Part shown: positions 2,425-22,697 of the stretch, piece by piece
Numbering within the stretch: position 1 is the first letter of the stretch
How the letters are laid out: every line of letters begins with the position of its first letter
DNA from: Candidatus Nanohalobium sp.
Lineage (GTDB): Archaea > Nanohalarchaeota > Nanosalinia > Nanosalinales > Nanosalinaceae
Assembly: GCA_042217545.1 (NCBI GenBank)
Contig: JBDGSM010000007.1
Coordinates: 1 to 24,133, forward strand
DNA length: 24,133 nt
Direction: 5' to 3'
Program-made: the position numbers and the translations under genes
The notes under the pieces: generated by a model
What the model was told of the DNA's origin: nothing
The model's input: the letters and a program-made list of their open reading frames with translations, nothing else
Databases searched by the model: none

Positions 2425-4497
2425 TTACTTGCTGTTCGCAACCTTCACCAGGGCTTCGGACAGTCTCTGAACCTTCTCCTGAAGATCCCTGAACTCATCC
2501 CGCGAAACATTTTCACCGGAATCAACCTCCTCCTCAACGCTCTCAACACGGTCGCTCACATCGGAAAAGTCGGAAACAAGTTCGTTAACCTGCTCCTCAA
2601 GCTTTTCAATATCCGAGGCCCTATCACCCTGCTCAGATCTCATTTCCTCGACCTCGCTCTTCACATCGGAGAGCTTCTCGAAGTTCTCAGTAACGTCTTT
2701 TTCAAGGCCTTCGACCTGGCCAGCGTTCTCATCCTGTTTGTCGTCCATCTGCTCCAGGCTATCCCAAAGCGAACGGATCTCCGACTTCGAAGCAAGCTGC
2801 TCCTGGGCCCTGTGCCTTGACTCAGCGATTCTGACGCCCATTTCCTCTCTAACATCGTCCAGGGCTCTCTCGAGCTCTGAGGCCTCGATCTTGTCCTCAA
2901 TCTCCGCTTTCTTGAACTCATCCCGGTCAAGCTTTCCTTCACGGAGCTCGTCAAGAGACTTCTCCTTCTCCTCGAACCGCTCCTCAAGCTTTTCAATATC
3001 GTTAAAGGCCTCCTCCAGTGCAGGAAGCACCTGTTCGACCTCCTCGGTCTTCTCCTCGATCTCGTCCTGCAGGCCATCAAGCTGATCTGAAAGCCGTGAA
3101 ACCCTGTCCCCAAGGCCTTCTATACTCTCTGCTTTTTGCTGGAACTCCTCCTGCGAGACCTTGCCCTGCTGTTCCTCACGGATCTCCTTCAGTACCTCGG
3201 CCTTCTCGTCCAGCTTTTCCTGGAGCCGGGAGACATCCGAGTCAACGTCCGAGATCTGGCCTTCAGCCGATTCTATCTCCTCCAGGGCCTCGTCATGCCT
3301 GTCCTCCAGCAGCTCCATGGAGTCCCAAAGCGAACGGATCTCCGACTTCGAAGCAAGCTGCTCCTGGGCCCTGTGCCTTGACTCAGCGATTCTGACGCCC
3401 ATTTCCTCTCTAACATCGTCCAGGGCTCTCTCGAGCTCTGAGGCCTCGATCTTGTCCTCAATCTCCGCTTTCTTGAACTCATCCCGGTCAAGCTTTCCTT
3501 CACGGAGCTCGTCAAGAGACTTCTCCTTCTCCTCGAACCGCTCCTCAAGCTTTTCAATATCCGAGGCCCTATCACCCTGCTCAGATCTCATTTCCTCGAC
3601 CTCGCTCTTCACATCGGAGAGCTTCTCGAAGTTCTCAGTAACGTCTTTTTCAAGGCCTTCGACCTGGCCAGCGTTCTCATCCTGTTTGTCGTCCATCTGC
3701 TCCAGGCTATCCCAAAGCGAACGGATCTCCGACTTCGAAGCAAGCTGTTCTCGAAGCCTGTGTTCTGTTTCAAGTATGCTTACGCCGATCTCGTCTTTCA
3801 GCTCATCCAGCTCCTGCTCAAGTTCGGAACCGTCGACTTTTTCACTTACAGAAAGTTTTTTCACGCGATCACGGATGCGGGAAAGCTCCACTATCTGGTC
3901 TCCACGCACCTGCTCAAGCCTCTGCTCAAACCGGGATCTGTCAACCTTTTCCTCGATCTCCGAATCCTTCAGCTCCCGTCCCATGTCAGAAAGGCTGTGA
4001 TCCATATCCTCCATCCGGGCCTTCAGCTTCTGGATCTCCTCCTCACGTTCCTGGAAAGTATCAATCCTGTCCTGTATATCCTCAACGTCCTCCTCAGTAA
4101 CTATAGAACTGTTTTCAATCTCCTCAATATCGTCGAAAGCAGCCTCAACCGTCGGAAGAAGCTCCTCAATCCGTTCACGTTTATCCTCGAACTCTTCAAC
4201 CATATCGCTGAACTCGTAATCCTTCGGCAGAGAACTGTAGTCAATCTTCAGATCGGAGACATCCTTTCTCAGGTCATTGACCTCTTCAAGAAGCTCCTCC
4301 TGCCTCTCCTTAACCTCACTATCCTCCGAGTTATCGTACTGATTCAGACGATATTCAAGCTTGGAAACTCGGTTCAGAAGCTCCTGGATCTTCGACTCCT
4401 CATCTCTGATCTCGCCTTCATACTTTTCGGCGTTATCCTTGGTCTCTGCGACCGCATCACTCACCGAGTCCTCAACGTCAGAGTTCAGCAATCCCAT
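2425..4497 (-). CDS. Long acidic coiled-coil protein with internal repeats
   Basis: About 690 aa of E/K/L heptads; no Walker A motif, no TM segment. ATG 4497 (MGLLNSD) chosen, with TTTAAA (4528-4533) about 30 nt upstream. Confidence 0.85.
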   Translation of the reverse strand: MGLLNSDVEDSVSDAVAETKDNAEKYEGEIRDEESKIQELLNRVSKLEYRLNQYDNSEDSEVKERQEELLEEVNDLRKDVSDLKIDYSSLPKDYEFSDMVEEFEDKRERIEELLPTVEAAFDDIEEIENSSIVTEEDVEDIQDRIDTFQEREEEIQKLKARMEDMDHSLSDMGRELKDSEIEEKVDRSRFEQRLEQVRGDQIVELSRIRDRVKKLSVSEKVDGSELEQELDELKDEIGVSILETEHRLREQLASKSEIRSLWDSLEQMDDKQDENAGQVEGLEKDVTENFEKLSDVKSEVEEMRSEQGDRASDIEKLEERFEEKEKSLDELREGKLDRDEFKKAEIEDKIEASELERALDDVREEMGVRIAESRHRAQEQLASKSEIRSLWDSMELLEDRHDEALEEIESAEGQISDVDSDVSRLQEKLDEKAEVLKEIREEQQGKVSQEEFQQKAESIEGLGDRVSRLSDQLDGLQDEIEEKTEEVEQVLPALEEAFNDIEKLEERFEEKEKSLDELREGKLDRDEFKKAEIEDKIEASELERALDDVREEMGVRIAESRHRAQEQLASKSEIRSLWDSLEQMDDKQDENAGQVEGLEKDVTENFEKLSDVKSEVEEMRSEQGDRASDIEKLEEQVNELVSDFSDVSDRVESVEEEVDSGENVSRDEFRDLQEKVQRLSEALVKVANSK
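2592..3747. repeat. Intragenic exact repeats: A (2592-2799 = 3540-3747, 208 bp) and B (2762-3000 = 3323-3561, 239 bp)
   Basis: Base-by-base comparison by eye. Offsets of 948 and 561 bp are both multiples of 3. Confidence 0.9.
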
Positions 4498-4541
4498 GGA
4501 ATCAAGTAACAATTACGTGAAGCCGAGTTTAAAATGTAACC

Positions 4542-6537: not shown

Positions 6538-6747
6538 GCCTCGTTGGCTCAGCTTGGCTAGAGCGGTCCCCTCGTAGGCGTGGTTAGTGCATCTTCCTTC
6601 AGGGAAGCATGCTTTGAGCAGGTCAACTTCCTAAGGAAGTAGACTGCGATGCTCGAGCCGGACGCAACAGGTCATGCCTCCGGCATCGCTTACAGGCAAC
6701 TACGTTGAGTTAGGGACAGGTCCCGGGTTCAAATCCCGGACGGGGCT
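6538..6747 (+). tRNA. tRNA-Thr(CGT) with a 135-nt intron at 37/38 (exon 1 6538-6576, intron 6577-6711, exon 2 6712-6747)
   Basis: Acceptor stem GCCTCGT/ACGGGGC, D arm GCTC..GAGC, anticodon stem GTCCC/GGGAC around CT-CGT-A^A, T arm CCGGG-TTCAAAT-CCCGG, discriminator U. Canonical BHB: CUCG/UGAG helix with UAG and UUA bulges. Confidence 0.95.
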
Positions 6748-6815
6748 CTCACCCATTACAGTCTCTAAGCCCTTTCTGGCGAGATAGCTGATCCTTGTTA
6801 GAAAAAATTTGTTAC

Positions 6816-11040: not shown

Positions 11041-11658
11041 TCAGCCCCACGGAGCGTCGTAATGAGACGCTCCTGTCCTTCCAATAGACTCCTGAACTCC
11101 AAACTTTTGACGCATCAAGTTATGAATCCTCAACACAGTTTCCTCCGCTTCCTCCTCATACCTCTCAATCTCCTTCGAGTAAAACTTGTTATGCCAGATC
11201 CCTACAAGTATTCTATAAAGCTTGGAACGCTGAAAACGGGTCTTCTCCTCAGCAGTGGGCGCACCCGGCATCCTCTCCTGCTCCAGGTAAGAAGGACCAC
11301 GAGGCGTCCAGGAGGCAGGATTCCAGCCAGGATAAACCGAAATAACATCCGCCGAGACCTGTACACGGGCCTTCAAGATATCCTGAGTCCTCTCCTGCTT
11401 GTAAATATCTTTAGGCGGTTTCGCCTTGAACGAAAGATTGTAATGGATCACAGTATGAGGAGACTTCTCCTTGAAAGCATGCATACGGACACGGTCCTTG
11501 GGCTTTGAAACATTGAACTCCATCTTCCCTTCCTCAATCCTGTCCATATCGAACTCGTCCACAAGAAGGTCCTTGAGGCCTCTGTAAATCCTGGCCGGAT
11601 CCTCATCCACGAAGAAGTGGTCTGCCTTCTTGATAACATCTTCCTCGAACTTAACCAT
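11041..11658 (-). CDS. Hypothetical protein, paralogue 2 of a tandem family
   Basis: 205 aa; Y..LKDLL, YP, and Q.S.LY...FY....E.YE...EE shared with 11789-12235. Confidence 0.82.
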   Translation of the reverse strand: MVKFEEDVIKKADHFFVDEDPARIYRGLKDLLVDEFDMDRIEEGKMEFNVSKPKDRVRMHAFKEKSPHTVIHYNLSFKAKPPKDIYKQERTQDILKARVQVSADVISVYPGWNPASWTPRGPSYLEQERMPGAPTAEEKTRFQRSKLYRILVGIWHNKFYSKEIERYEEEAEETVLRIHNLMRQKFGVQESIGRTGASHYDAPWG

Positions 11659-11660
11659 GC

Positions 11661-11806
11661 TCAGGCCTCCAGTGTCTCACCAATCCCACTGCCAGACGAA
11701 GCATTCGAAGCTCGATAGAGCTTCTGCATGTCCAGAAAATCTCTTAGAGATTTTCGAGCAGTTGGACAGTTCTCGTTTTCCATGATTTTCAGGCCTCCAG
11801 TGTCTC
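11661..11806. mobile_element. 110-bp hairpin-rich insert (11679-11788) flanked by an 18-bp direct repeat; MITE-like; holds a 40-aa ORF at 11661-11783(-)
   Basis: TCAGGCCTCCAGTGTCTC at 11661-11678 and 11789-11806; perfect hairpins at 11707-11724 and 11735-11755. Mobility is inferred. Confidence 0.6.
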
Positions 11807-12235
11807 CCTCAACCTGTTGACTAACGTGTCCATTTTTTCCTCTACCGCAGGTTCATAGCCTTCGCGGACGCTGCCGTACAGGAACTTGTCATAAAGCGAT
11901 CTGTAGGCGTAGTACCAGAGGCTTTCCTGCCAGAATCTTTCATCCGGGTACTCTGTCACAAGCTTGCCATTAACCTGGATATCGACTTCTCCCGTGGCCT
12001 TGTTGATCTTGAAGAAGATCTCCAGCTCCTCCGCCGTCTCACCATCAAGCCCTTCCTCAGTCTCTATCTTCACTCTTATCATGTCGCCGTCGACGTCGTT
12101 GTAGTACTTCTCCTCGTGGACGTGGTCGAACGTCATCCTGTTCTCCAGGAGGTCCTTGATCTCGCTGTAGGCCTCCTTCGGATATTCGACCTCCACAGTA
12201 AGTCTGCGACGCTCGACTTCCTCGACGATATTCAT
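11789..12235 (-). CDS. Hypothetical protein, paralogue 1 of a tandem family
   Basis: 148 acidic aa; YSEIKDLL..EEKYYNDVD..TEYP..WQESLWY..LYDKFLY. Confidence 0.82.
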   Translation of the reverse strand: MNIVEEVERRRLTVEVEYPKEAYSEIKDLLENRMTFDHVHEEKYYNDVDGDMIRVKIETEEGLDGETAEELEIFFKINKATGEVDIQVNGKLVTEYPDERFWQESLWYYAYRSLYDKFLYGSVREGYEPAVEEKMDTLVNRLRETLEA

Positions 12236-12310
12236 ACAAGTCTAGTTTTGGAGGCCTCCGTAAAAAAGCCCTTCGGTGCAGAAGAAAAAATCAGGGGAAA
12301 AACAAGGCTC

Positions 12311-12841
12311 TCAACGGCATTCAGGACAGACCCACATGCCGTTGACCTGTTCCAGGTCCTCCGAGAAGTTCTCACAGGATTCACAGTTGCCGTTCCGGGA
12401 TTCAGGTCTAGGAGACGCCTCGGCCTCCATCTCCTCCTCTTCCTCCATGATCTCTGCGAAACCAGGCCATGCACGGAGGATATCGGACTGAGTTACAATA
12501 CCGACAAGCATATCATCTCTCACCACCGGAACACGGGAGACATCGTTCCTGACCATCGCCATAGCAACCTCATCAAGGTACTCGTCCTCTTCAGCGACAA
12601 TAAGGTCAGTACTCATTATGTCCTCGACAGCCACTTCGGAAGGATCCTTCCCGTCTTTCGTAACCTTGTAGACGATATCACGGCAGACAACAACACCCAC
12701 TGCCTCACCGTCATCAACGACGATCAGGCCTCGAATGCCTTCATCTTCAAGTAATGCTGCAGCTCTCGTAACCGGTTTATCCTGCTCAACGGCGATCACA
12801 CCATCTGTCATGACTTCTGCAATCTCAACGTTCTGGCTCAT
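12311..12841 (-). CDS. CBS-pair protein with C-terminal zinc finger
   Basis: Two CBS repeats (EVMT..GLIVVD..VGVV; DIMS..RVPVV..LVGIVTQSDIL) followed by CESC...VCPEC. Confidence 0.9.
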   Translation of the reverse strand: MSQNVEIAEVMTDGVIAVEQDKPVTRAAALLEDEGIRGLIVVDDGEAVGVVVCRDIVYKVTKDGKDPSEVAVEDIMSTDLIVAEEDEYLDEVAMAMVRNDVSRVPVVRDDMLVGIVTQSDILRAWPGFAEIMEEEEEMEAEASPRPESRNGNCESCENFSEDLEQVNGMWVCPECR

Positions 12842-12912
12842 ATTTACAGGGAAGAGGCCTCGAAACTAATTAACCTTACGCTCTCGACGGGAAAAACGGG
12901 TTGAAAAAAGTT

Positions 12913-15900
12913 TTACCCTGCGAACTGTCCAAGGCCTGTCTGGCGCTGATCCTTGCCGAACAGGCTCTGCAGGGTCTTGTTCAGCATCAGCACCTGCTGG
13001 CGCAGATACGGCGTAATCTCATACTCATTGATGATCTCCTTCGACGGCTGCATATACTTCTTGATAGTTCCCTCAGAAATCGTCAGCAGCACCTTGCCCC
13101 CGCACTCCGGACATTCCGCGGTCTCCTTGCCTGAAGGCGCGATCGTCTGCTGTGTCATCGGAACACGCCTGAACTTCTCGTTACAGTCAACACAACGCAT
13201 CTCCTGGCTGGAAAAGCTTCTCAGGTTACCTCTGATATCCGGAAGGAAGTGCTTCTGTAGCAGGAGCTCCGCGACCTTGTCCTCATCCACCGCTTTCAAT
13301 TTCTCACCAAGGCCTAACTGCGCAGAGGTCTTCTCACTCATCTCATCCAGCGTAACGTACTCCGACTGATTAGGCCCGTTCTCAACACTGGTCGATTCAT
13401 GAGTGAAACCATGCCTGTACGGCTCATCACTGTGAACGATGTCCTCGCCGATCTGGATCTCGTTGTCCAGGTTCCACGGCTTCTTGTACTCCTGCGTCTC
13501 CTCGTAGAAACCGAGAGGATATTCATCCACCGTTTCGATAGCCCAGGCCTCATCATCGATCTCGTCAGCGTTCAAAACAGTTGAAAGGATCAGAGGAGCG
13601 TCCATCGTGTTGTGAGCGAATACAGGATGCGGGCCGCAGAGGAAGTTCTGGTTCCCCGGCACTTCCAGATCATACACGTAGTCATCGCCGTAATCCCTCT
13701 TCTCCACCTCTTTAACACGTTCAACAGATATATCTCCCCTAACCGGCTTCTCCAGCGAGTCAAGGCCTTTACCGTAAAGTTCCTCTACTCTCTGTTTGGA
13801 GGCAGTTTTCATCCTGTCGTTCTTCCTGTCATTGGAGAAAGACTGCTTTATCTCCTTGTAGTCGGCGCCGTCGGCTCTCAGAGCTTCTCTTCCTTCATCC
13901 AGCACGTTCCATAGAGGCCAGTAAGGATCCTTGTCAGTCCATTCCGAGTAGAGGACCTCCCAGGTCTCGCCCGCCTTCCGGGTTGAAGACTTGAAGCCCA
14001 GTTTCCTGACAAGTAGAGAGAGCTGTGTGGCCATCTCTCCACTCTTGGTGTAGAGCTTGGAGAAACCTTTCTCCTCGTAGATAGAGCCGTCTCCAGCCCG
14101 GTAGGCCTGTACGAACTCCTCTACTTTCTCTTCTTCGGCGCCGAACACGAACGAAGGAATGCTTTTTTCGTCGAACTTCTCCCTTTCAAGACCTAGCTCT
14201 TCCAGCGCCCGCATCAGGACCGCAGGAGTATCGACCCAGTAGCACTTCTTTTTTCCTTCTCTGTCGTCTATATGAGTTCTCGGCTCCACACCTGTCAGCT
14301 CACGTATGCAGTGCTCGACGTCTTCTATCACATCTTCATCTGTATTTGTTATCCTTCCCCTGTCCAGGTCGCCCTCTGAAAGCAGGTAGCCCAGCAGGCG
14401 GTAAAGCTCGGCCGAGTTCTCGATGAACCGGTCTACTGGATCTGTATTAGCTCTCAGCCTTACCTTGCAGGAAGGTACGACTCCCACATCCTTGTAGAAC
14501 TCCAGAGGTGCGTCCCTTCTACCTGTCCTGTACCTGTAGATATTGTGTTCTCCGTACTCCTCTTTCACTTCCTCTCCTGCCTCGGCCTTGATCTCCGACT
14601 CCAGTTCCTCGAGCTCTTCCTCAGGAACCTTCACGTAGCATTCATCGTCCGGCAGCAACTCGAAGAGATCGATCTCATCCTCAAGGCCTTCAGCCTCCAG
14701 CTCAGGGTTCGAAGGAACCACTATACAGTCTCCTTCCTCAAGCTCCCTGACAGGCCTTGCCTCTATCTCATCTCCTTCAGTAACGAAAACACTGTGATCG
14801 CCGGTTACAGAGATCTCTCCACGGGAAGTACTGACCTCGAACACTTCCTTATCGTTCTCGTGCCTAATCAGAGCGGAGACATCCCTGAACTCGACGTCGC
14901 CCGAATCTTTATCAAACGAGACAGCCTTGATATCTTCATCAAAGCTTCTATTTACCTCAAACCCATCTTCACGCGTTTCAAAGCCTTCTTCCTCCAGCAC
15001 TTCGTCTATAAGCTCATCCGCTCTCGGAGCCTTGATCTCTCCGTTCCTCTTGACAACAAGCCTCGTATCCCTCGTAATACTCCTCGCTCCCGTCATGTCC
15101 GGGAGATACTTCCTTGAGAAGTTCAGTAATCCGTCCATCATCAAAAGGATAGCGTCCTCGTCGCCGTCAGCGTTCCTCCTCTTCGCTGCATGCCAGTAAG
15201 GATGAGCGTAGATGCCTTTGGCGTCCGTGAAACCTATTATACGGCCCACGGTTCCTCCGGACGTGTGAGGTGCCAGACCTATCACAAGGGAGCCGACAAG
15301 ATCCTGTTTCTCCTCGACATCGTAGTAAGAATCAAGGCCGTAGAACTCCTCCAGCAGCTCATCGACGTAGTTCGCAACTCTCACGAAGTAATCGGAGGCC
15401 TTCAACGTGTTCTCGCCATCAGGTATGACCAGATCCTGAGGCTTCAGCTCCAGAACCTGATCCTCGTTCTCTAGTTCTTCTCCGTTCACGTCCTGTTTGT
15501 AGCCGATCTCCCGCAGCTTCTCGACGGATACATTGATCTCTTTCGGCTTGAAATGGGTCATAGGAATGTCCGAGGCATCGTATCTTACTGTGCCGTCCTT
15601 GTTCGCGTATAGATCGTATTTCTCACGTAGAAGGCCTTTCTCGATAGGTTCCACATGCTTGTGCTTCGATGTCATCCCTCTGAAGGATTTCAGGAGTTCT
15701 GGAGGCTCTCTCATGCCAAGGTTCTCCAGGGCGTCGTCCATCATCTTCCTGACATCGATATCGGTCTCCCTGTACCTGTTCAGCCAGGTACCGCCGCAGT
15801 TACCGCATTTATCCTTTTCCTCCGTGTATTCCTTGCCGCAGTCGCTGCAGACCCAGACAGCTTCCGCAGGAGCGTCGCATTCACGGCAGAAGCTGTAATG

Positions 15901-17883
15901 CGTGATCTCACCACACTCCGTACATCTATTATGAATTATCTGCTCCCGTACAATTCCCTGCTCTCCATGCATTGTCTGCTTGTAGGAAGCGGACAGGTTT
16001 CTCATACGTCCGCCCTCCTGCTTGCCGCAGGGGAACAGAAGCTGTGGATCGCCGTTCAGGGTCCTGCGCTCGGCTTTCTCAGGCCTCCCCATACGTCCTC
16101 CAAGGTAATGCGGTGCCTGATCCCTGACCTCTATACCTGAAACATCCTCTATGAACCCCGGTATATCTGAGGCCTTCTCAACTTCCTCAAGTCTTTCAGT
16201 ATTGTCGTTTTCAAGGTCGAGAACTTTTCTCATCACCGCCATATCGTTTTCCCTGAGCTCGATCTCGCCTTCTTTCTCCCTGTGCTGTACAAGTATATCT
16301 TCCAGGGCCTTTTTCGCCTTCGAGTTCCATTCCTCGTTGCGCAGGGCCTTGTACAGGGCCTTGAACTTTGCTGGAGAGGTCTCTCTCCAGTGGTACGTCC
16401 ACTTGGGATGTAGAGGCATTCCGAGAGCTTCGGATATCTTGAAAGCTTCCTCCGGCGTCGGATCCCGTTCCTCGAAGCTTTTGCCAAGCTTTACATCCTG
16501 CTCTTTCAGCTCCTTATCCAGTTCTTTCTCCCACCATTCGCTTACGTATGGTGAGGGCAGCAGTTTCTTACCGTTCTCCACGAACTCGCCATACGTTACA
16601 AGTATATCGCCGAGGAACAGTATCTCCTCTATATCGTTCTCCAGTTCCTTTGCTTCTTCCCTCGTATCGACTTTTACCACATCTCCGTTCTTCAGACGGG
16701 CTACAGGCGGATGGATGCTGTCGCACGGGCTCCCGACCGTTGCCTTGCCCGGGTACTCCACTTTCATCTGGGTTCCGATCGCGAGGAACCGCTCTGTGAT
16801 CTCCATCGTCGCCGGGTGGAAGCTGGTCGCTGCGAGGCCGTTGGTCCTGCTGTGACCGTACCTCAGGCGGAAACCTCCTTTCCTCCCGGGATGTCCGAAG
16901 ACAGGCCTTCCAGCGGTTAGGGAACCGAGATACTTGTCGCTCGGCGTGTACTTGTCCTTCTCCTCATCGTCCTCTTCTTCATCGTCGCTTCCGGACGAGT
17001 GGAGCTCTTTCTGCAGGTCAAGATATTCTCCTATCCATTCCCAGTGCTCCAGGCCGAACTCCTCGCCCCATTTCTCGATACGTTTCTTGATCTTCGGAGC
17101 TTTCAGCGGTAGGCCGTCCAGGTAGACCAGGCAGAGGCCTCCACGGATCTGGTTCGTGTCAACGCGGTCGAGGTCCTTGTAGTTCGAGACGTCCAGGTCC
17201 TCAGTAGGGCTTCCTGTGACCTCGACAGGAACGTTCTCGGCAATCATCTCTGTCTCCTCCCTCTCCGGCGAATACTGCTTCGCCGTAACCCTGTTAATAT
17301 AGTCATCAACTTCTGTAGAATAACGTTTCACGACAGTATCTGAAGGCTTGAAACGGTCAAGGCCTACGCCGATCCTGACGTAATCGGAAAGCAGGACGGA
17401 CATGGCGCTCGCAGTACCGCCCGCGGATCTGATAGGTCCTGAGTAGTAGACCGCCAGGTACTTACTTCCATCATCGTTCTCACGTACACGGATGTCTCCA
17501 ATACCTTCCAGCGGCGCAGTCGTGATACCCCCCGTCATGTAAGAGACACCTACACGAATACCTGCGTCGCAGGCCTTCTCCACGTCGTCGAAGTCGTAGA
17601 AGTTTCCCTCCGCGATCTCCCGAGCAATAGAGAACGAAACCCTCTCGTCGTTCTTCCCGTACTCGTCCTCAAGCTCCCTGATCCTAGCGGCGACGCCCTG
17701 ATCCTCCAGCTCCGGGAACATCGCCGCGATAACCAGCGAAGAGGCCTTCTCAGGCAGATCTGTGGCTACAGGGATGTCTACCTTGTCTTCAGGATCCTTG
17801 GACTGATCTCTCGCCTTCTCAGCTACATCGTAGGCCTTTTCAGTTTCCTGTGATATTTTTCCAAAGTATTCCTCCGTTTTCAT
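12913..17883 (-). CDS. polC: DNA polymerase D large subunit DP2, intein-containing (about 1165 aa after splicing)
   Basis: APLEGI, GPIRSAGGTA, GGFRLRYG, GRMGRPEKA, GLAPHTS, HAAKRRNxDGDED, MDAPL and Zn-finger clusters. Confidence 0.97.
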   Translation of the reverse strand: MKTEEYFGKISQETEKAYDVAEKARDQSKDPEDKVDIPVATDLPEKASSLVIAAMFPELEDQGVAARIRELEDEYGKNDERVSFSIAREIAEGNFYDFDDVEKACDAGIRVGVSYMTGGITTAPLEGIGDIRVRENDDGSKYLAVYYSGPIRSAGGTASAMSVLLSDYVRIGVGLDRFKPSDTVVKRYSTEVDDYINRVTAKQYSPEREETEMIAENVPVEVTGSPTEDLDVSNYKDLDRVDTNQIRGGLCLVYLDGLPLKAPKIKKRIEKWGEEFGLEHWEWIGEYLDLQKELHSSGSDDEEEDDEEKDKYTPSDKYLGSLTAGRPVFGHPGRKGGFRLRYGHSRTNGLAATSFHPATMEITERFLAIGTQMKVEYPGKATVGSPCDSIHPPVARLKNGDVVKVDTREEAKELENDIEEILFLGDILVTYGEFVENGKKLLPSPYVSEWWEKELDKELKEQDVKLGKSFEERDPTPEEAFKISEALGMPLHPKWTYHWRETSPAKFKALYKALRNEEWNSKAKKALEDILVQHREKEGEIELRENDMAVMRKVLDLENDNTERLEEVEKASDIPGFIEDVSGIEVRDQAPHYLGGRMGRPEKAERRTLNGDPQLLFPCGKQEGGRMRNLSASYKQTMHGEQGIVREQIIHNRCTECGEITHYSFCRECDAPAEAVWVCSDCGKEYTEEKDKCGNCGGTWLNRYRETDIDVRKMMDDALENLGMREPPELLKSFRGMTSKHKHVEPIEKGLLREKYDLYANKDGTVRYDASDIPMTHFKPKEINVSVEKLREIGYKQDVNGEELENEDQVLELKPQDLVIPDGENTLKASDYFVRVANYVDELLEEFYGLDSYYDVEEKQDLVGSLVIGLAPHTSGGTVGRIIGFTDAKGIYAHPYWHAAKRRNADGDEDAILLMMDGLLNFSRKYLPDMTGARSITRDTRLVVKRNGEIKAPRADELIDEVLEEEGFETREDGFEVNRSFDEDIKAVSFDKDSGDVEFRDVSALIRHENDKEVFEVSTSRGEISVTGDHSVFVTEGDEIEARPVRELEEGDCIVVPSNPELEAEGLEDEIDLFELLPDDECYVKVPEEELEELESEIKAEAGEEVKEEYGEHNIYRYRTGRRDAPLEFYKDVGVVPSCKVRLRANTDPVDRFIENSAELYRLLGYLLSEGDLDRGRITNTDEDVIEDVEHCIRELTGVEPRTHIDDREGKKKCYWVDTPAVLMRALEELGLEREKFDEKSIPSFVFGAEEEKVEEFVQAYRAGDGSIYEEKGFSKLYTKSGEMATQLSLLVRKLGFKSSTRKAGETWEVLYSEWTDKDPYWPLWNVLDEGREALRADGADYKEIKQSFSNDRKNDRMKTASKQRVEELYGKGLDSLEKPVRGDISVERVKEVEKRDYGDDYVYDLEVPGNQNFLCGPHPVFAHNTMDAPLILSTVLNADEIDDEAWAIETVDEYPLGFYEETQEYKKPWNLDNEIQIGEDIVHSDEPYRHGFTHESTSVENGPNQSEYVTLDEMSEKTSAQLGLGEKLKAVDEDKVAELLLQKHFLPDIRGNLRSFSSQEMRCVDCNEKFRRVPMTQQTIAPSGKETAECPECGGKVLLTISEGTIKKYMQPSKEIINEYEITPYLRQQVLMLNKTLQSLFGKDQRQTGLGQFAG
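13609..15081 (-). mobile_element. Intein with LAGLIDADG homing endonuclease (491 aa, residues 935-1425 of DP2)
   Basis: N-terminus SITRDTRLVV, block B VTGDHSVF, LAGLIDADG motifs LLGYLLSEG and AYRAGDGSI, block F VYDLEVPGNQNF, C-terminus AHN with +1 Thr. Confidence 0.93.
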
Positions 17884-17884
17884 C

Positions 17885-18682
17885 CTACTCCTGGCCTCCG
17901 TAACGTTTTTTTACAATTTCAAGTATGTCTTTGAACTCTCCTGTCTCCGCGTCAACATTATTGTACTCCACCTGTTCATGGTTCTCCACCATGAATGAAT
18001 TCTCGGCTTTTTCAGCGATATCAACGTCGTTCGCTCCGTTGCCTACGAAAACGATCTTCCGGACTCCTGCTTCCTTCATCTCGTTGAAGGCCTTGCTCTT
18101 ATCATCGGCGTAGACGTCTTTCTCTATAAATTTGAACCTGCCATCGCTGAACTTGAAGGTCCAGCTCGGGACTACAAAGTCTGCATCCAGGTTCCTGGCC
18201 GCTTTACACGACATGCTCTCCGACGTATGGGAGAGAATGCCTACCTTGAAGCCTGACTCCTTGAAAGCCTTCACAAGCTCTGCGCTGCGATCTCTCAAGT
18301 TCAGGAACGACTTGTTGTACCACTCCACAAGGTCTTCCGCGGTCTCATGGTCTGTCTCCTCCAGTAACTTGTTCAGCTGCTGGACGTTCTCCTGCTCGAA
18401 CTCCTCCCGTGAAATCTGTCCGTTCCACCACTTGTCCACGCGTCTGAAGTACTCTTCAGGCGTTTCACCGGCAAGGAGATGGAGTCCGCTCCAGTAGCCA
18501 AGATCCGTCTTTATTTCAAAGCTCTCCCCTTCAAACATCCTGTAAACGTGTTCAGGCCTCGGGTTCGGAGGCACATGCCGGTCACCTGGCTTGAGAGTTC
18601 CCTCTACATCCATGAGAACAACTTTTTTCCCTTCAAAGGCCTTGAAATCTTTTTTTCCCGATAGTACTTCTATATCTTTCAT
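17885..18682 (-). CDS. HAD-superfamily hydrolase (phosphoserine phosphatase-like)
   Basis: Motif I LMDVEGTL, motif II ILS, motif III K, motif IV FVGNGAND. ATG 18682 is preceded by GGAGGTGA. Confidence 0.82.
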   Translation of the reverse strand: MKDIEVLSGKKDFKAFEGKKVVLMDVEGTLKPGDRHVPPNPRPEHVYRMFEGESFEIKTDLGYWSGLHLLAGETPEEYFRRVDKWWNGQISREEFEQENVQQLNKLLEETDHETAEDLVEWYNKSFLNLRDRSAELVKAFKESGFKVGILSHTSESMSCKAARNLDADFVVPSWTFKFSDGRFKFIEKDVYADDKSKAFNEMKEAGVRKIVFVGNGANDVDIAEKAENSFMVENHEQVEYNNVDAETGEFKDILEIVKKRYGGQE

Positions 18683-18848
18683 CAGAACTGTTTCACCTCC
18701 GAACTTCTGAACTCTAAGACTCCTCGAGTCTTCCCCGGCCAGCAACCATAGGTTGCGGGAGTTCGACCATCATAATACATGGCTCGAGAGAGCCATTTCT
18801 TGCGTGCCAACTGAGCGTAACCAGTTGTCATCAGAACTGTTTCACCTC
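18679..18848. mobile_element. 128-bp hairpin-rich insert (18700-18827) flanked by a 21-bp direct repeat; holds a 49-aa ORF at 18682-18831(-)
   Basis: TCATCAGAACTGTTTCACCTC at 18679-18699 and 18828-18848; four hairpins with 6-7 bp perfect stems inside. Mobility is inferred. Confidence 0.6.
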
Positions 18849-20639
18849 TGTGTTCCTGTTCTTGAAGTTTAGTATAGTTACTTTTCCTGGATCTGGCTCG
18901 TGCCCTACACGTTTCTGGAAATCTGTCTGGGCCTGGAACGTCGACGAGCAGATGACGTTCACGCCCTTGTAGCTGCTTACTGCATGGCTGTGGAAGTGAC
19001 CTGAAACCATTACATCCGGCTTCTCCTCGATAACCATGTGATCAGTAGCCTCGGGCGAAAGCATGTTTGTTCCGTACGTCGGCGCAAGATGCCTGCGCTT
19101 CAGAAGATCTATCATAACACGGTCCGGCTCGTCGTAAGCGTGCTCACGAAGCTCCTGAATCTTATCCACGTGATCGTCAAAGCTATAGCCGTGATACATC
19201 AGATGCTTCAGGCCTTTTGACTCGATGCCGTGAAGCCTGACAGTCTGAGGATTCTGGACCCTGTGAACATTATCATATTCAGGAATCCTTGTGAACGCTT
19301 CCCTGGGCAGCCTTGGCTGTGGCTCGGAAAGCCTTGTTATATCGTGGTTGCCCGGTCCTATAATTATCTGTATGTCCTCCGGTATCTTGTCAACCCAGTC
19401 CTCAAACAGTTCGTACTGCTTGTAAATATCGGTTACACGCAGTTCCTCTTCCTGTCCTGGGTAAACGCCCACGCCTTCAACAAGATCGCCTGTGATAACA
19501 AGATAGCCGATCTTCGACGCCGCATCCGTGGAAAGCCACTCGGCAAAACGGTCCAGACGGTCATCAAGAGTATCTATCGATCCAAGGTGTAGATCAGAGA
19601 TGTAAGCCGCCTTGACCTCATCTTCAGTGGAGGCTGTCCTGCCCTGAGGAATAGGAAGGTCAGGCCTCACCACGCTGTTCGCGTAGATGATGTCGCCCCC
19701 CATGCTTCCCTGCACGCCGATCATCTCATCCGGAACAATCAGTTCGCCAGGCCTCTCATCAACAAGGGCCTTGAAAGTCCCTGTCTTGTCCTCAATCTCT
19801 ACTATGTATTTACCTGAGGATGTGGAGTACTTGTCCTTTACAAGGCCTACTGTGGTCGCCTGTTCCCCTTCATCTCTCTTCTCCAGTCTCTTTATGGTTG
19901 TTGCTGACTGAAGCTGCGTTCTCCGGGTAAGAAGCTTTCTCATCCTGTCGTAACGGTCGTTGTAATAGGATAAGAACTCTGGGACGTCTTTTTCTTCTTT
20001 ATTGATATCTGCCTCGTCCATTATCTCGACCTTCGTCCTCAGCTGATCTCTTCTACCTGAATCACGAAGTCTTACAGTTTTCTCTGAGGAGAACTTGGAG
20101 CCTCTGCGGTCGTAAAGCTCCTCCTCTTCCTCGCTCAGATCATTGTTAAGCTTGCTCTCGTCCACTTCTTCATCAAAGTCTTCATCTGTGGAGTCGGTGC
20201 CCTGAGAAGTCTGATCCTGGGAAGGTTCTTCCTGATCCTGTTCAGTATTTCTTTGCTGTTCGGAGGCGTCTTCATCTTCTGAACTATCCGAAACTATAAC
20301 GCTGTCCTCCATCTCCCCCTCCTGTTCAGTAGTTGTACCTTCACTTATTTCAGTCTCGGAAACAGCTTCAGGCGAAGAATCACCGGGCTGTGAAGAAGAT
20401 TCCTGCTCCACCTCTGAGCCTCCACCAGGCCTTGCCTTAACGACCTGCCTCTGCTTGCCCGTGGAGACGTCCTGAGAAAGCTTCTGCCTGAGCCTCTGCA
20501 CCATATCAGCTGAAACATACATCGGAGTGGTGTCAAGCTCTCTGATCAGCTCTACATCTCTCTCAGTCAGTTTCTCTGCTGCTTCTCTTCCCACCATGCA
20601 GCCCTGTTTAGTAAGTTCTTTTACCGCGTTTTCTTCCAT
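18831..20639 (-). CDS. polB: DNA polymerase D small subunit DP1 (proofreading exonuclease)
   Basis: OB fold, then calcineurin-like phosphoesterase motifs ISDLHLGS, GDLVEGVGVYPGQ, PGNHD, YHG, SGHFH, FQAQTDFQ. Confidence 0.96.
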   Translation of the reverse strand: MEENAVKELTKQGCMVGREAAEKLTERDVELIRELDTTPMYVSADMVQRLRQKLSQDVSTGKQRQVVKARPGGGSEVEQESSSQPGDSSPEAVSETEISEGTTTEQEGEMEDSVIVSDSSEDEDASEQQRNTEQDQEEPSQDQTSQGTDSTDEDFDEEVDESKLNNDLSEEEEELYDRRGSKFSSEKTVRLRDSGRRDQLRTKVEIMDEADINKEEKDVPEFLSYYNDRYDRMRKLLTRRTQLQSATTIKRLEKRDEGEQATTVGLVKDKYSTSSGKYIVEIEDKTGTFKALVDERPGELIVPDEMIGVQGSMGGDIIYANSVVRPDLPIPQGRTASTEDEVKAAYISDLHLGSIDTLDDRLDRFAEWLSTDAASKIGYLVITGDLVEGVGVYPGQEEELRVTDIYKQYELFEDWVDKIPEDIQIIIGPGNHDITRLSEPQPRLPREAFTRIPEYDNVHRVQNPQTVRLHGIESKGLKHLMYHGYSFDDHVDKIQELREHAYDEPDRVMIDLLKRRHLAPTYGTNMLSPEATDHMVIEEKPDVMVSGHFHSHAVSSYKGVNVICSSTFQAQTDFQKRVGHEPDPGKVTILNFKNRNTEVKQF

Positions 20640-20671: not shown

Positions 20672-21880
20672 CTACCCGATGTAGAACTTGTCCTCTACCA
20701 TTTCTTCAAGCCTTCCACAGATATTATCCGAAAGGTCTACGCTGATCTGTCGAGTCCTGCCGTAACGTCCCTTGCTGATGACTTTGGCATTGATAACACC
20801 AAGCATGTCGAGCTCCGAGATAAGGCCTGAAACTCTTCTCTGCGTAAGTTCTGAAACATCTACTGTCTTGCAGAGGGCCTTGTACTCGCTGTAGACATCT
20901 CCTGTAGCGATCTCGTCCTCGTCCTCCGTCATATCAAGTATTGTGTAAAGGACTAGCTTCGAATGCTTCGGCTGGCTTCTTACAGTCTCGACCACTCTGT
21001 CACGCTCGATCTTGCTCTGTGCCTTGTTCACATGTTCTTTCTCTATTCTTTCTACTTCGGAACGCTCGGCCAGTTCACCTGCGACACGTAGCAGGTCGAG
21101 AGCTCTTCTTGCGTCCCCGTGCTCCTGTGCAGCTAATGCAGAACATTTCGAGATAACTCCGTCCTGGAGAGCGCCTTCGACAAAGGCCTTGTCAGTCCTG
21201 GCTCTCAGGATCTCTCTCAACTCGATAGCGTTGTAAGGAGCGAAAATTATCTCCTCCTCGGAAAGCGAGGACTTGACTCTTGAATCCATGTAATCAGTGA
21301 AGTTGAGATCGTTGCTGATACCTAAAATGGAGACCTTGGTCTCGTCCAGATCGTCGTTGATCCTGGTAAGGTTGTAAAGGAACTCGTCTCCGACCTTCTT
21401 CACGAGCGCGTCGATCTCGTCCAGCGCGATAACTACGACTCCGCCCTGGTCCTGTAAGGCCTCGAAGAACCTGTTGTAGATCTCATCTGTAGGAAGGCCT
21501 GTGCTAGGCACTTCTTCACCTAATTGACGAGCAAGTTTAGCTAGTAAACGGTATTCAGTATCTGCAACCTTCTTCATCTTGCAGTTGATGTATAGTATGT
21601 TCAGATCTATCTCCTGCTCATGTGCAACATCTTGAAGCTCATCTGTAACATGTTTTACGACCAGTGTTTTCCCTGTACCTACAGATCCGTAAAGGAAAAC
21701 ATTGCTAGGATCATTGCCTTTCAGTGATGGCGCTAGAATAGATGCCAGATCATTGATCTGTTCATCCCTGTGAAGGATGTTATCCGGTTTGTAGCTGGTG
21801 GTCAGAGCGTCCTTGTTTTTGAAAACAGAATCCTTATCGATGTAGTTAGAGAACATCGACTTCAGATTACTCTGACTCAT
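20672..21880 (-). CDS. cdc6: Orc1/Cdc6 replication initiator
   Basis: Walker A GSVGTGKT, Walker B LDEID, HGDARRALDLL, C-terminal wHTH ELDMLG..SKGRYGRTR; GGAGG SD upstream. Confidence 0.97.
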   Translation of the reverse strand: MSQSNLKSMFSNYIDKDSVFKNKDALTTSYKPDNILHRDEQINDLASILAPSLKGNDPSNVFLYGSVGTGKTLVVKHVTDELQDVAHEQEIDLNILYINCKMKKVADTEYRLLAKLARQLGEEVPSTGLPTDEIYNRFFEALQDQGGVVVIALDEIDALVKKVGDEFLYNLTRINDDLDETKVSILGISNDLNFTDYMDSRVKSSLSEEEIIFAPYNAIELREILRARTDKAFVEGALQDGVISKCSALAAQEHGDARRALDLLRVAGELAERSEVERIEKEHVNKAQSKIERDRVVETVRSQPKHSKLVLYTILDMTEDEDEIATGDVYSEYKALCKTVDVSELTQRRVSGLISELDMLGVINAKVISKGRYGRTRQISVDLSDNICGRLEEMVEDKFYIG

Positions 21881-21931
21881 TCGACCCCCTCCGTAAAGTC
21901 AGAATCCAGAATCATCTTTGTCCCCGTATCA

Positions 21932-22410
21932 TTTCTACTTGAAACCAAGGTTTATAATCCCTTTCCAATCGAAGTCGGGGTGATTTGGACCCCCACCCCC
22001 TGATTTCGTGTGGAAAACTAATCTGCCCAAAGTTTCTGAGTATAACAGTGTTATATAGTTATAACGTTGTTATACAGTATAGCAGTGTTATATCCGAACT
22101 CCCAGCTCAGAAGCTTTCTTCCACTTGAAACAAAGGGGTGGGCGGCTTCTTCCACAGTAGCTCGAGATCACTGAAACAGCATATTTCCAGCACAGCAGAA
22201 ATCCTTTCCGGCATACGGCTACTTCCGCGAGCAGGCCTACCTGTATAACGCCGTTATACTTTTCTCCTCGGGTCGCAGGAAAAAATCTGGCCGACCGATC
22301 TCCCGCTCCCGAACTCAGAATTTTGTTTTCTCCAGTCGAAGGCCTCAGCTTCCTTCCTCGCATCTACTTCTCGAGCAAAGGCCTTTTCCACCCCCTGATT
22401 TCATGTGGAG
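21932..22410. other. Replication origin (oriC) with ORB elements
   Basis: ORB-like boxes: 22119-22142(+) TTCCACTTGAAACAAAGGGGTGGG; 21990-22015(-) TTCCACACGAAATCAGGGGGTGGGG; 22388-22410(-) CTCCACATGAAATCAGGGGGTGG; mini-ORB 21932-21950 TTTCTACTTGAAACCAAGG. Directly upstream of cdc6, with flanking genes pointing away. Confidence 0.88.
22041..22258. repeat. Four TATAAC-N3-GTTATA palindromes (22041-55, 22060-74, 22078-92 with one mismatch, 22244-58)
   Basis: Read directly from the sequence. Confidence 0.8.
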
Positions 22411-22697
22411 ATTTGGTTAACATTCCTGTCTCGGTGACAAATTTCCTGCCTTTCGAGATATGTTTGTGTAATCCTTGGCTTTTCTTGTAAGAATTTCTGG
22501 AACTTGATATCTGCTCATAAAGAAACTGATTTTCTTGGTATAAACTTGAGCTCTTCTTTATGGAAACCCTTGTTCTATGTATGCACCCATTTAAAACAGC
22601 TGTTTGTACTGAAGAGGAAGTCTTATTTTGTAAAGATGCCTGAGATCTTTATCTGTTTGCAGGATTTTTTATAGAGATATCTTCTCCAATATGAGTT

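Follow-up and report, generated by a model that had tools for sequence, protein, structure and literature searches.

Gene-less hairpin elements at gene junctions and in tRNA genes of DPANN archaea, with predicted relay micro-ORFs

A real, widespread, and apparently unpublished mobile family of small hairpin-forming elements, with a strong signature of preserved translational coupling, is present in DPANN archaea. The window analyzed here is a 24,133-nt stretch of Candidatus Nanohalobium sp. (JBDGSM010000007.1), in which two inserts lie at gene junctions. We put at roughly three in four the probability that these inserts belong to a modular, gene-less family of mobile hairpins of DPANN archaea, whose micro-ORFs would relay ribosomes and whose phase selection would maintain; that their insertion is templated is a weaker proposal, less likely than not. 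The original prediction, of a non-autonomous structured element, was borne out by a gene-less hairpin family with tens of copies. Random ORF phase, or a lack of further examples or of empty sites, had been named beforehand as grounds for giving it up; further examples occur genome-wide, ORF phase is non-random, and relatives have empty sites. The literature searched (mostly without subscription papers, supplements excluded) held no published description of this hairpin family in archaea.

Two inserts in the window and their hairpin modules

Contig C67, which makes up the window, belongs to a 92% complete genome of 1.03 Mb labeled G000 (other G numbers are its relatives), and the genes on it include cdc6, the PolD small subunit DP1, a HAD hydrolase, and an intein-bearing DP2. 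As already described, exact direct repeats flank both inserts, 18 nt with a period of 128 at site 1 and 21 nt with a period of 149 at site 2 (Table 1); by arithmetic, about 1e-4 exact 18-mer pairs within 400 nt are expected by chance per 24 kb. At both sites the repeat covers the upstream stop and a word resembling a Shine-Dalgarno (SD) sequence, as had been proposed. The two open frames do end in the duplicated C-terminus; ORF 1, which was said to begin inside the first repeat, begins after it. Among 89 exact repeat pairs in G000 (at least 13 nt, 40 to 400 nt apart), inspection by eye found no third long repeat at a stop codon.

Table 1. Features of the two inserts and of the tRNA intron in the window
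Feature	Position	Strand	Description
tRNA-Thr(CGU) intron, 135 nt (tRNA 6538-6748)	6577..6711	+	module-A variant, double hairpin nested in loop
Site 1, second repeat copy	11661..11678	-	provides SD and stop, 2 nt ahead of 205-aa gene (11041-11658)
Relay micro-ORF 1, 40 aa, predicted	11661..11783	-	start 5 nt past upstream stop; end within duplicated C-terminus; stop 2 nt before next ATG
Insert 1, 110 bp	11679..11788	-	missing in G001 and G002
Module B of insert 1	11706..11756	-	two GAA..TTC hairpins and conserved linker; last hairpin without SD
Site 1, first repeat copy	11789..11806	-	end codons, SD-like GGAGG, and stop of 148-aa gene
148-aa gene upstream of insert 1	11789-12235	-	no Pfam match
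Site 2, second repeat copy	18679..18699	-	re-creates SD and ATG of HAD hydrolase gene (17885-18682)
Relay micro-ORF 2, 49 aa, predicted	18682..18831	-	start overlaps DP1 stop; stop overlaps HAD start (next ATG)
Insert 2, 128 bp	18700..18827	-	missing in G001; G002 orthologue 107/128 identical, without indels
Module A core in insert 2	18800..18827	-	hairpin with GTTACGCT loop and RCACGCAA linker; family's conserved end
Site 2, first repeat copy	18828..18848	-	DP1 (18831-20639) end: SD, stop, overlapping ATG

Both inserts are real and not an assembly error, because contigs of two runs span both of them and G002 has an insert 2 orthologue. The two runs come from one study of a salt lake and are possibly the source of the assembly itself, and G002 gives independent support for insert 2. 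None of the listed datasets with this sequence is an RNA set. Several perfect hairpins had been described in each insert. Insert 2 has three, plus the module-A stem, and insert 1 has only two, together with an imperfect closing stem. The fold of insert 1 is more stable than those of its shuffles (z = -3.38; 0/200), and that of insert 2 is not (z = -1.31; 18/200). With a cutoff of E = 1, no Rfam covariance model matched the window. Over 22 nt (11691-11712), insert 1 resembles cdc6 coding sequence 9 kb away (20955-20976; 21/22, E = 0.003 in the genome), by chance or by local sequence capture.

Elsewhere in the window, the intein of DP2 (gene at 12913-17883) includes a LAGLIDADG domain, and population contigs carry a different insert near 14938-15172. 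The region upstream of cdc6 (21890-22420), where a 15-nt repeat recurs after 395 nt and TATAAC-GTTATA palindromes stand in tandem, is likely a replication origin, and 2425-4512 encodes an acidic 695-aa protein with long internal repeats. The word AGGCCT, very common for a 1-Mb genome, occurs 3699 times in G000, against 3321 expected from 5-mers.

The two inserts had been thought to share no similarity, which is wrong at the level of the family. Insert 1 carries a module B, a pair of hairpins each starting with GAA and ending with TTC and joined by a short linker; insert 2 carries a module A, a hairpin that has GTTACGCT as its loop and RCACGCAA behind it. They belong to one family because modules A and B sit together in other copies (e.g., the tRNA-Ala intron in C58). 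BLAST of the inserts against their own genome matched many other places, and a motif scan found 43 clusters of at least two B-type hairpins in G000, versus 1 to 3 in five codon-block shuffles. Module B nests within A at fixed points, and copies nest in each other. Stem sequences, which are A/T-rich, vary among copies while pairing stays perfect; linkers and nesting points are conserved, as is only one end. In the module-A stem, three pairs are altered on both sides in an alignment that was itself selected by motif, and pairing is strand asymmetric, with U-G in 6/17. A pseudoknot of the module-A loop with the linker is compatible with the alignment and unsupported, as no pair is altered on both sides. 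We scored 47 family copies in G000, 23 at start codons and 24 elsewhere. An array of five hairpins with tRNA T-arm-like words lies at G000:C40:55-247.

We found the B pattern in 25/50 family genomes, G000 counted (reversed control, 0), and the A 12-mer in 31/61 genomes (control, 3). A 26-nt core matched 99 GTDB stretches, a set that partly repeats the A 12-mer loci, so that the two are not independent. The 80 matches listed are all archaeal, from Woesearchaeota, Nanohaloarchaea, Asbonarchaeaceae, an Iainarchaeum, unclassified archaea, and uncultured Methanosarcinales, by titles as deposited; a search of IMG/VR did not recover the core. The identical core recurs at unrelated sites in several phyla. 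Tandem arrays also occur. Repeats of 12 to 55 nt accompany 20/83 core matches, with the first copy ending mostly 0 to 10 nt ahead of the core; repeats at reversed controls never exceed 11 nt. A T-loop motif lies near the core in 33/80. In one Woesearchaeota record, a dispersed repeat of ~300 nt (L207, L216, L247, L256, L270-L272) encloses module A and includes variable segments.

Micro-ORF phase and the SD hairpin

We chose by eye 24 copies adjacent to start codons in G000, kept the 22 whose first hairpin has an ATG or GTG no more than 15 nt away, left out two, and took the expectation from each copy's own three frames. In 21/22 micro-ORFs the stop lies between -9 and +5 nt relative to the next start, with 8.0 expected (P = 5e-9); the remaining copy is an in-frame fusion. 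Among relatives, 24/27 copies with a start are coupled, with 11.3 expected (P = 8e-8), a count that retains seven spacers (with start) not matching the module expression and one frameshifted gene; one further copy has no start. Both P values are overstated, as they ignore shared ancestry and the copies were picked by eye. ORF phase is thus non-random, as predicted. A stop just before the next gene is found in 7/8 copies in frame with that gene versus 0/14 others (Fisher p = 5e-5). The micro-ORF starts near an upstream stop in 17/22 copies; in the other five it does not, which would make these leaders and not bridges. The peptides of one and the same module are read in different frames, which argues against peptide function. 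Tandem micro-ORF pairs occur at G000:C39:10344-10473 and C52:6828-6959, and at atpA the second insert has apparently split off the native N-terminus. Micro-ORFs of this kind may cause errors in start-call annotation.

Junction copies take two forms. Form I, the common one, is 50 to 108 nt from start to start; it is inserted just after the start codon, of which it repeats roughly ATG(A), and its last hairpin contains an SD of its own. Its ends have 2 to 6 nt in common at the start codon, a length that permuted pairs reach as well. GGTG or GGCGA is present in the last 16 nt of 23/23 start-codon copies versus 0/24 others, a contrast that is partly circular because the profile that found the copies was seeded largely with SD-bearing ones. 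The SD is at least half paired in 21/23 start-codon copies. We rejected the idea that the SD hairpin was copied from the target: the SD fits its own locus no better than others (permutation p = 0.62), so it belongs to the element.

Form II, a minority to which both window sites belong, has no SD of its own and duplicates 12 to 55 nt of target. Of nine such cases located at a gene start or nearby, five have the relay arrangement by our reading: the two window sites, G006, G042, and L206. The G042 case, with ATG 5 nt before the stop, lies beyond the scripted range and was counted by reading. Of those without a relay, G002 has lost the ATG, G026 starts 12 nt past the upstream stop and stops 13 nt short of the next start, and L257 and L274, two GTDB cases, stop early. 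The 18- to 21-bp duplication had been proposed to keep translation coupled. This is not the usual arrangement, as most junction copies duplicate 2 to 6 nt and carry their own SD.

Other contexts, empty sites, and filled sites

Copies were predicted to target, or survive only at, SD/stop junctions. That restriction fails, since 24/47 scored copies in G000 are elsewhere: in tRNA introns or flanks, in frame in genes, or intergenic. The suspicion that the window's tRNA-Thr intron might be related proved correct (Table 1). ARAGORN found no tRNA in the window by default and found this one once introns were allowed. The intron has an intact 81-nt form in G001 and G003, carries the double hairpin in its loop in G000, and is missing in G011, G013, G016, G017, and G022. 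Many G000 tRNA genes have long introns (45 to 137 nt), several made of the same hairpins. A MazG-like gene, named from sequence reading, has a 51-nt in-frame insert that is missing in 3/3 aligned relatives (G001, G002, and G014), and a helicase-like gene has two in-frame inserts. The copies observed take shapes that an intact host function could tolerate: an in-frame stretch of a gene, a tRNA intron, an insert following a duplicated tRNA end, or a junction insert whose micro-ORF stops at the next start codon.

Each window insert is missing from at least one same-genus genome, so the predicted empty sites exist. Site 2 is filled in 6/29 readable genomes by eye (G000, G002, G006, G026, G030, and G031), with one more ambiguous. 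It is empty in G012 and G019, same-genus partners of filled genomes, and in G001, in which DP1 and HAD overlap by stop and start codon. Site 1, also scored by eye, is filled in 3/24 genomes and holds different inserts in G021 and G006. With spacers of 35 to 200 nt counted as filled, other junctions are filled in 7/30 genomes (L11-L1), 10/26 (L1-P0), 5/26 (L18e-L13), 3/30 (L13-S9), and 8/24 (AtpA-AtpB). Copies therefore come and go among related genomes, and the same junctions are hit in different genera.

The L11-L1 insert is identical (75/75) in G000 and G002, with flanks 78 to 85% identical, which fits function as well as transfer. Alleles across genera are 96 to 98% identical (50/52 and 55/56), with flanks at 66 to 82%. 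The population contigs are nearly identical to the window except for short tracts dense in SNPs (12125-12215, 12500-12572, and 13970-13980). Spread through short-tract recombination would account for these alleles and tracts, and so might strong conservation or misbinning. None of the joints listed for the population contigs, which drop rare variants, skips either insert.

Mechanism, alternatives, and known systems

In Haloferax volcanii and Escherichia coli, a spacing of ~20 nt nearly abolishes coupling or reinitiation (PMC10666635), and the H. volcanii SD has no driving role in de novo initiation (PMC6728339). If the same applies in nanohaloarchaea, an insert of 50 to 150 nt at a coupled junction would starve the next gene unless it carried a relay, which would give selection its reason. 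We infer that the micro-ORFs are translated and that their ribosomes would pass to the next gene by termination-reinitiation. Purifying selection would remove wrong-phase copies, and the peptides themselves would not matter. As a natural experiment, the phase bias at junctions of core ribosomal-protein, ATPase, and polymerase genes suggests selection on translational coupling in DPANN archaea that can be cultivated barely or not at all.

As to mobilization, we searched G000, at 92% completeness, for Y1/HUH transposase, RT, Cas1, IS110 (PF02371), and GIY-YIG and found none. The RT or HUH/Y1 enzyme proposed as mobilizer is therefore unsupported. The family genomes include RT in 5/34, four of them mutually similar and DGR-like, with no element motif at these RT loci. 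The DGR-like loci (L339-L341 and L343) are in four family genomes, and two hold a 115-nt repeat pair. An element common to several phyla with no detectable enzyme points to an unknown mobilization route. We tentatively favor templated copying at a nick or break, in which a host or viral polymerase would copy a folded single-stranded donor and rejoin upstream, leaving a variable duplication; filled alleles would then spread by short-tract recombination. Among mobilizer models, this one best fits the variable duplication and the one fixed end. A more far-reaching version is doubtful: an enzyme-less family shared across phyla and moved by an undescribed templated insertion, whose start-codon subfamily has a hairpin-buried SD opened only by the ribosome of its own micro-ORF, giving strict coupling, and which would keep generating tRNA introns, tRNA-end duplications, and microproteins, with filled alleles crossing genera. 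That one family joins start-codon, in-frame, tRNA-intron, and tRNA-end inserts offers a testable route for the origin of archaeal tRNA introns and small ORFs.

Site-specific integration would have a tyrosine recombinase insert small target-bearing circles, as at tRNA att sites, with a start-codon crossover giving rise to the relay ORF. Elements integrated at such att sites duplicate the tRNA 3' end from the T-arm to the discriminator. The sharp tRNA boundaries seen here fit att-type integration: eleven tRNA 3'-end repeats of 15 to 27 nt enclose inserts of 40 to 96 nt, and 9/11 end at position 73-74. The one tyrosine recombinase of G000, the tandem arrays, the same junctions hit in several genera, and the near-identical cross-genus alleles also agree with it. 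However, targets number in the dozens and are unrelated, repeats span 2 to 55 nt, the G006 repeat duplicates that genome's own C-terminus, and no element motif adjoins the G000 recombinase gene. Unlike in att-site elements, the repeat copies here are only 40 to 96 nt apart with no integrase, and tRNA 5' ends (in relatives) and gene junctions are duplicated too. We consider integration unlikely. A Y1 HUH transposase moving the elements in trans, as with REPINs or IS200/IS605, would account for hairpins, one conserved end without terminal inverted repeats, and the strand-asymmetric U-G pairing, but we rate it as improbable: PF01797 is in 0/37 family genomes (3/61 overall), the three of five PF01797 loci that were scanned have no module-B or A-core match beside the gene, and HUH transposition is not known to make a target duplication.

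Two further explanations dispense with present mobility. Micro-ORF/SD hairpins might be regulatory leaders of the host, no longer mobile and retained because they serve stoichiometry or ribosome sensing. Their clustering ahead of ribosomal-protein and ATPase genes, the SD buried in a stem, and the L11-L1 insert identical in two species are in line with this. Yet presence is patchy at every junction tested, peptides come from different frames of the same module, and the same modules occur in tRNA introns and coding regions, which makes leaders a quite unlikely answer. Local slippage and quasi-palindrome correction might also make similar hairpins independently at each site, with no mobile family at all; stems that differ yet pair perfectly, and the lack of an enzyme among those sought, are what this would leave. 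It is strongly disfavored by the shared unpaired loop and linker; the identical 26-nt core stands at unrelated sites in several phyla and linkers and nesting points are conserved.

A mobile hairpin family has several known counterparts. TPRT retroelements differ in that no cognate RT was found in G000, and casposon-derived elements in that G000 has no Cas1 and terminal inverted repeats are also wanting. The double-hairpin elements of fungal mitochondria, the Methanocaldococcus MJRE, and the Nostoc SDR are also very small hairpin repeats, lie within spacers, introns, and reading frames, and have no known enzyme; they have other hosts, and we liken them by description, not by sequence. MITEs are likewise short, non-autonomous, foldable, and flanked by duplications in the part of the source available (PMC3184786), whereas the archaeal family has no family-wide terminal inverted repeats and its duplication length varies. 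REPINs, mobilized with RAYTs, share hairpin doublets, clusters, and non-autonomy, from the available part of PMC3116915; unlike them, the archaeal family has no Y1 transposase in 37 genomes, and its second hairpin is not the first in inverted orientation. Rickettsia RPEs and intragenic REPs are palindromic, gene-less, and in frame in proteins, some families without a dedicated transposase (PMC3733652, in part), and the archaeal family likewise has in-frame inserts in intact protein genes with empty orthologues. By eye, the GTAG or CGTC tag is absent from the aligned module ends, and long target duplications and relay ORFs are absent from the RPE descriptions in the available part of that source.

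Closest are the mycobacterial MIRUs (Supply et al., 1997, as summarized), which are reported to land at start codons and to bring a coupled ORF along (PMC12548453, section 11; PMC3184786). The relay design is thus already known from MIRUs (PMC12548453), and the claim of a new class is not supported. In the summaries available, MIRUs are alike in being ~40 to 100 bp with tens of copies, empty and filled sites, start-codon insertion, no transposase, an own ORF overlapping its neighbors, a short repeat around the start codon, and internal inverted repeats. In size and copy number, form I corresponds (50 to 108 nt; 47 copies) and the window inserts are longer (110 and 128 bp). The archaeal family probably works like a MIRU, but with MIRUs compared by description we do not class it as one: the imperfect terminal inverted repeats and G+C-rich stems of MIRUs are replaced by one conserved end and A/T-rich stems. 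Where MIRUs have a tetranucleotide direct repeat at both ends, form I shares 2 to 6 nt (as in permuted pairs) and form II has 12 to 55 nt. Unlike MIRUs as summarized, the archaeal family has GAA..TTC hairpins with an SD in the last one, several stop/start spacings and not -4 alone, a second form with its 12- to 55-nt duplication, sites in tRNA introns, at tRNA ends, and in frame within genes, and modular nesting.
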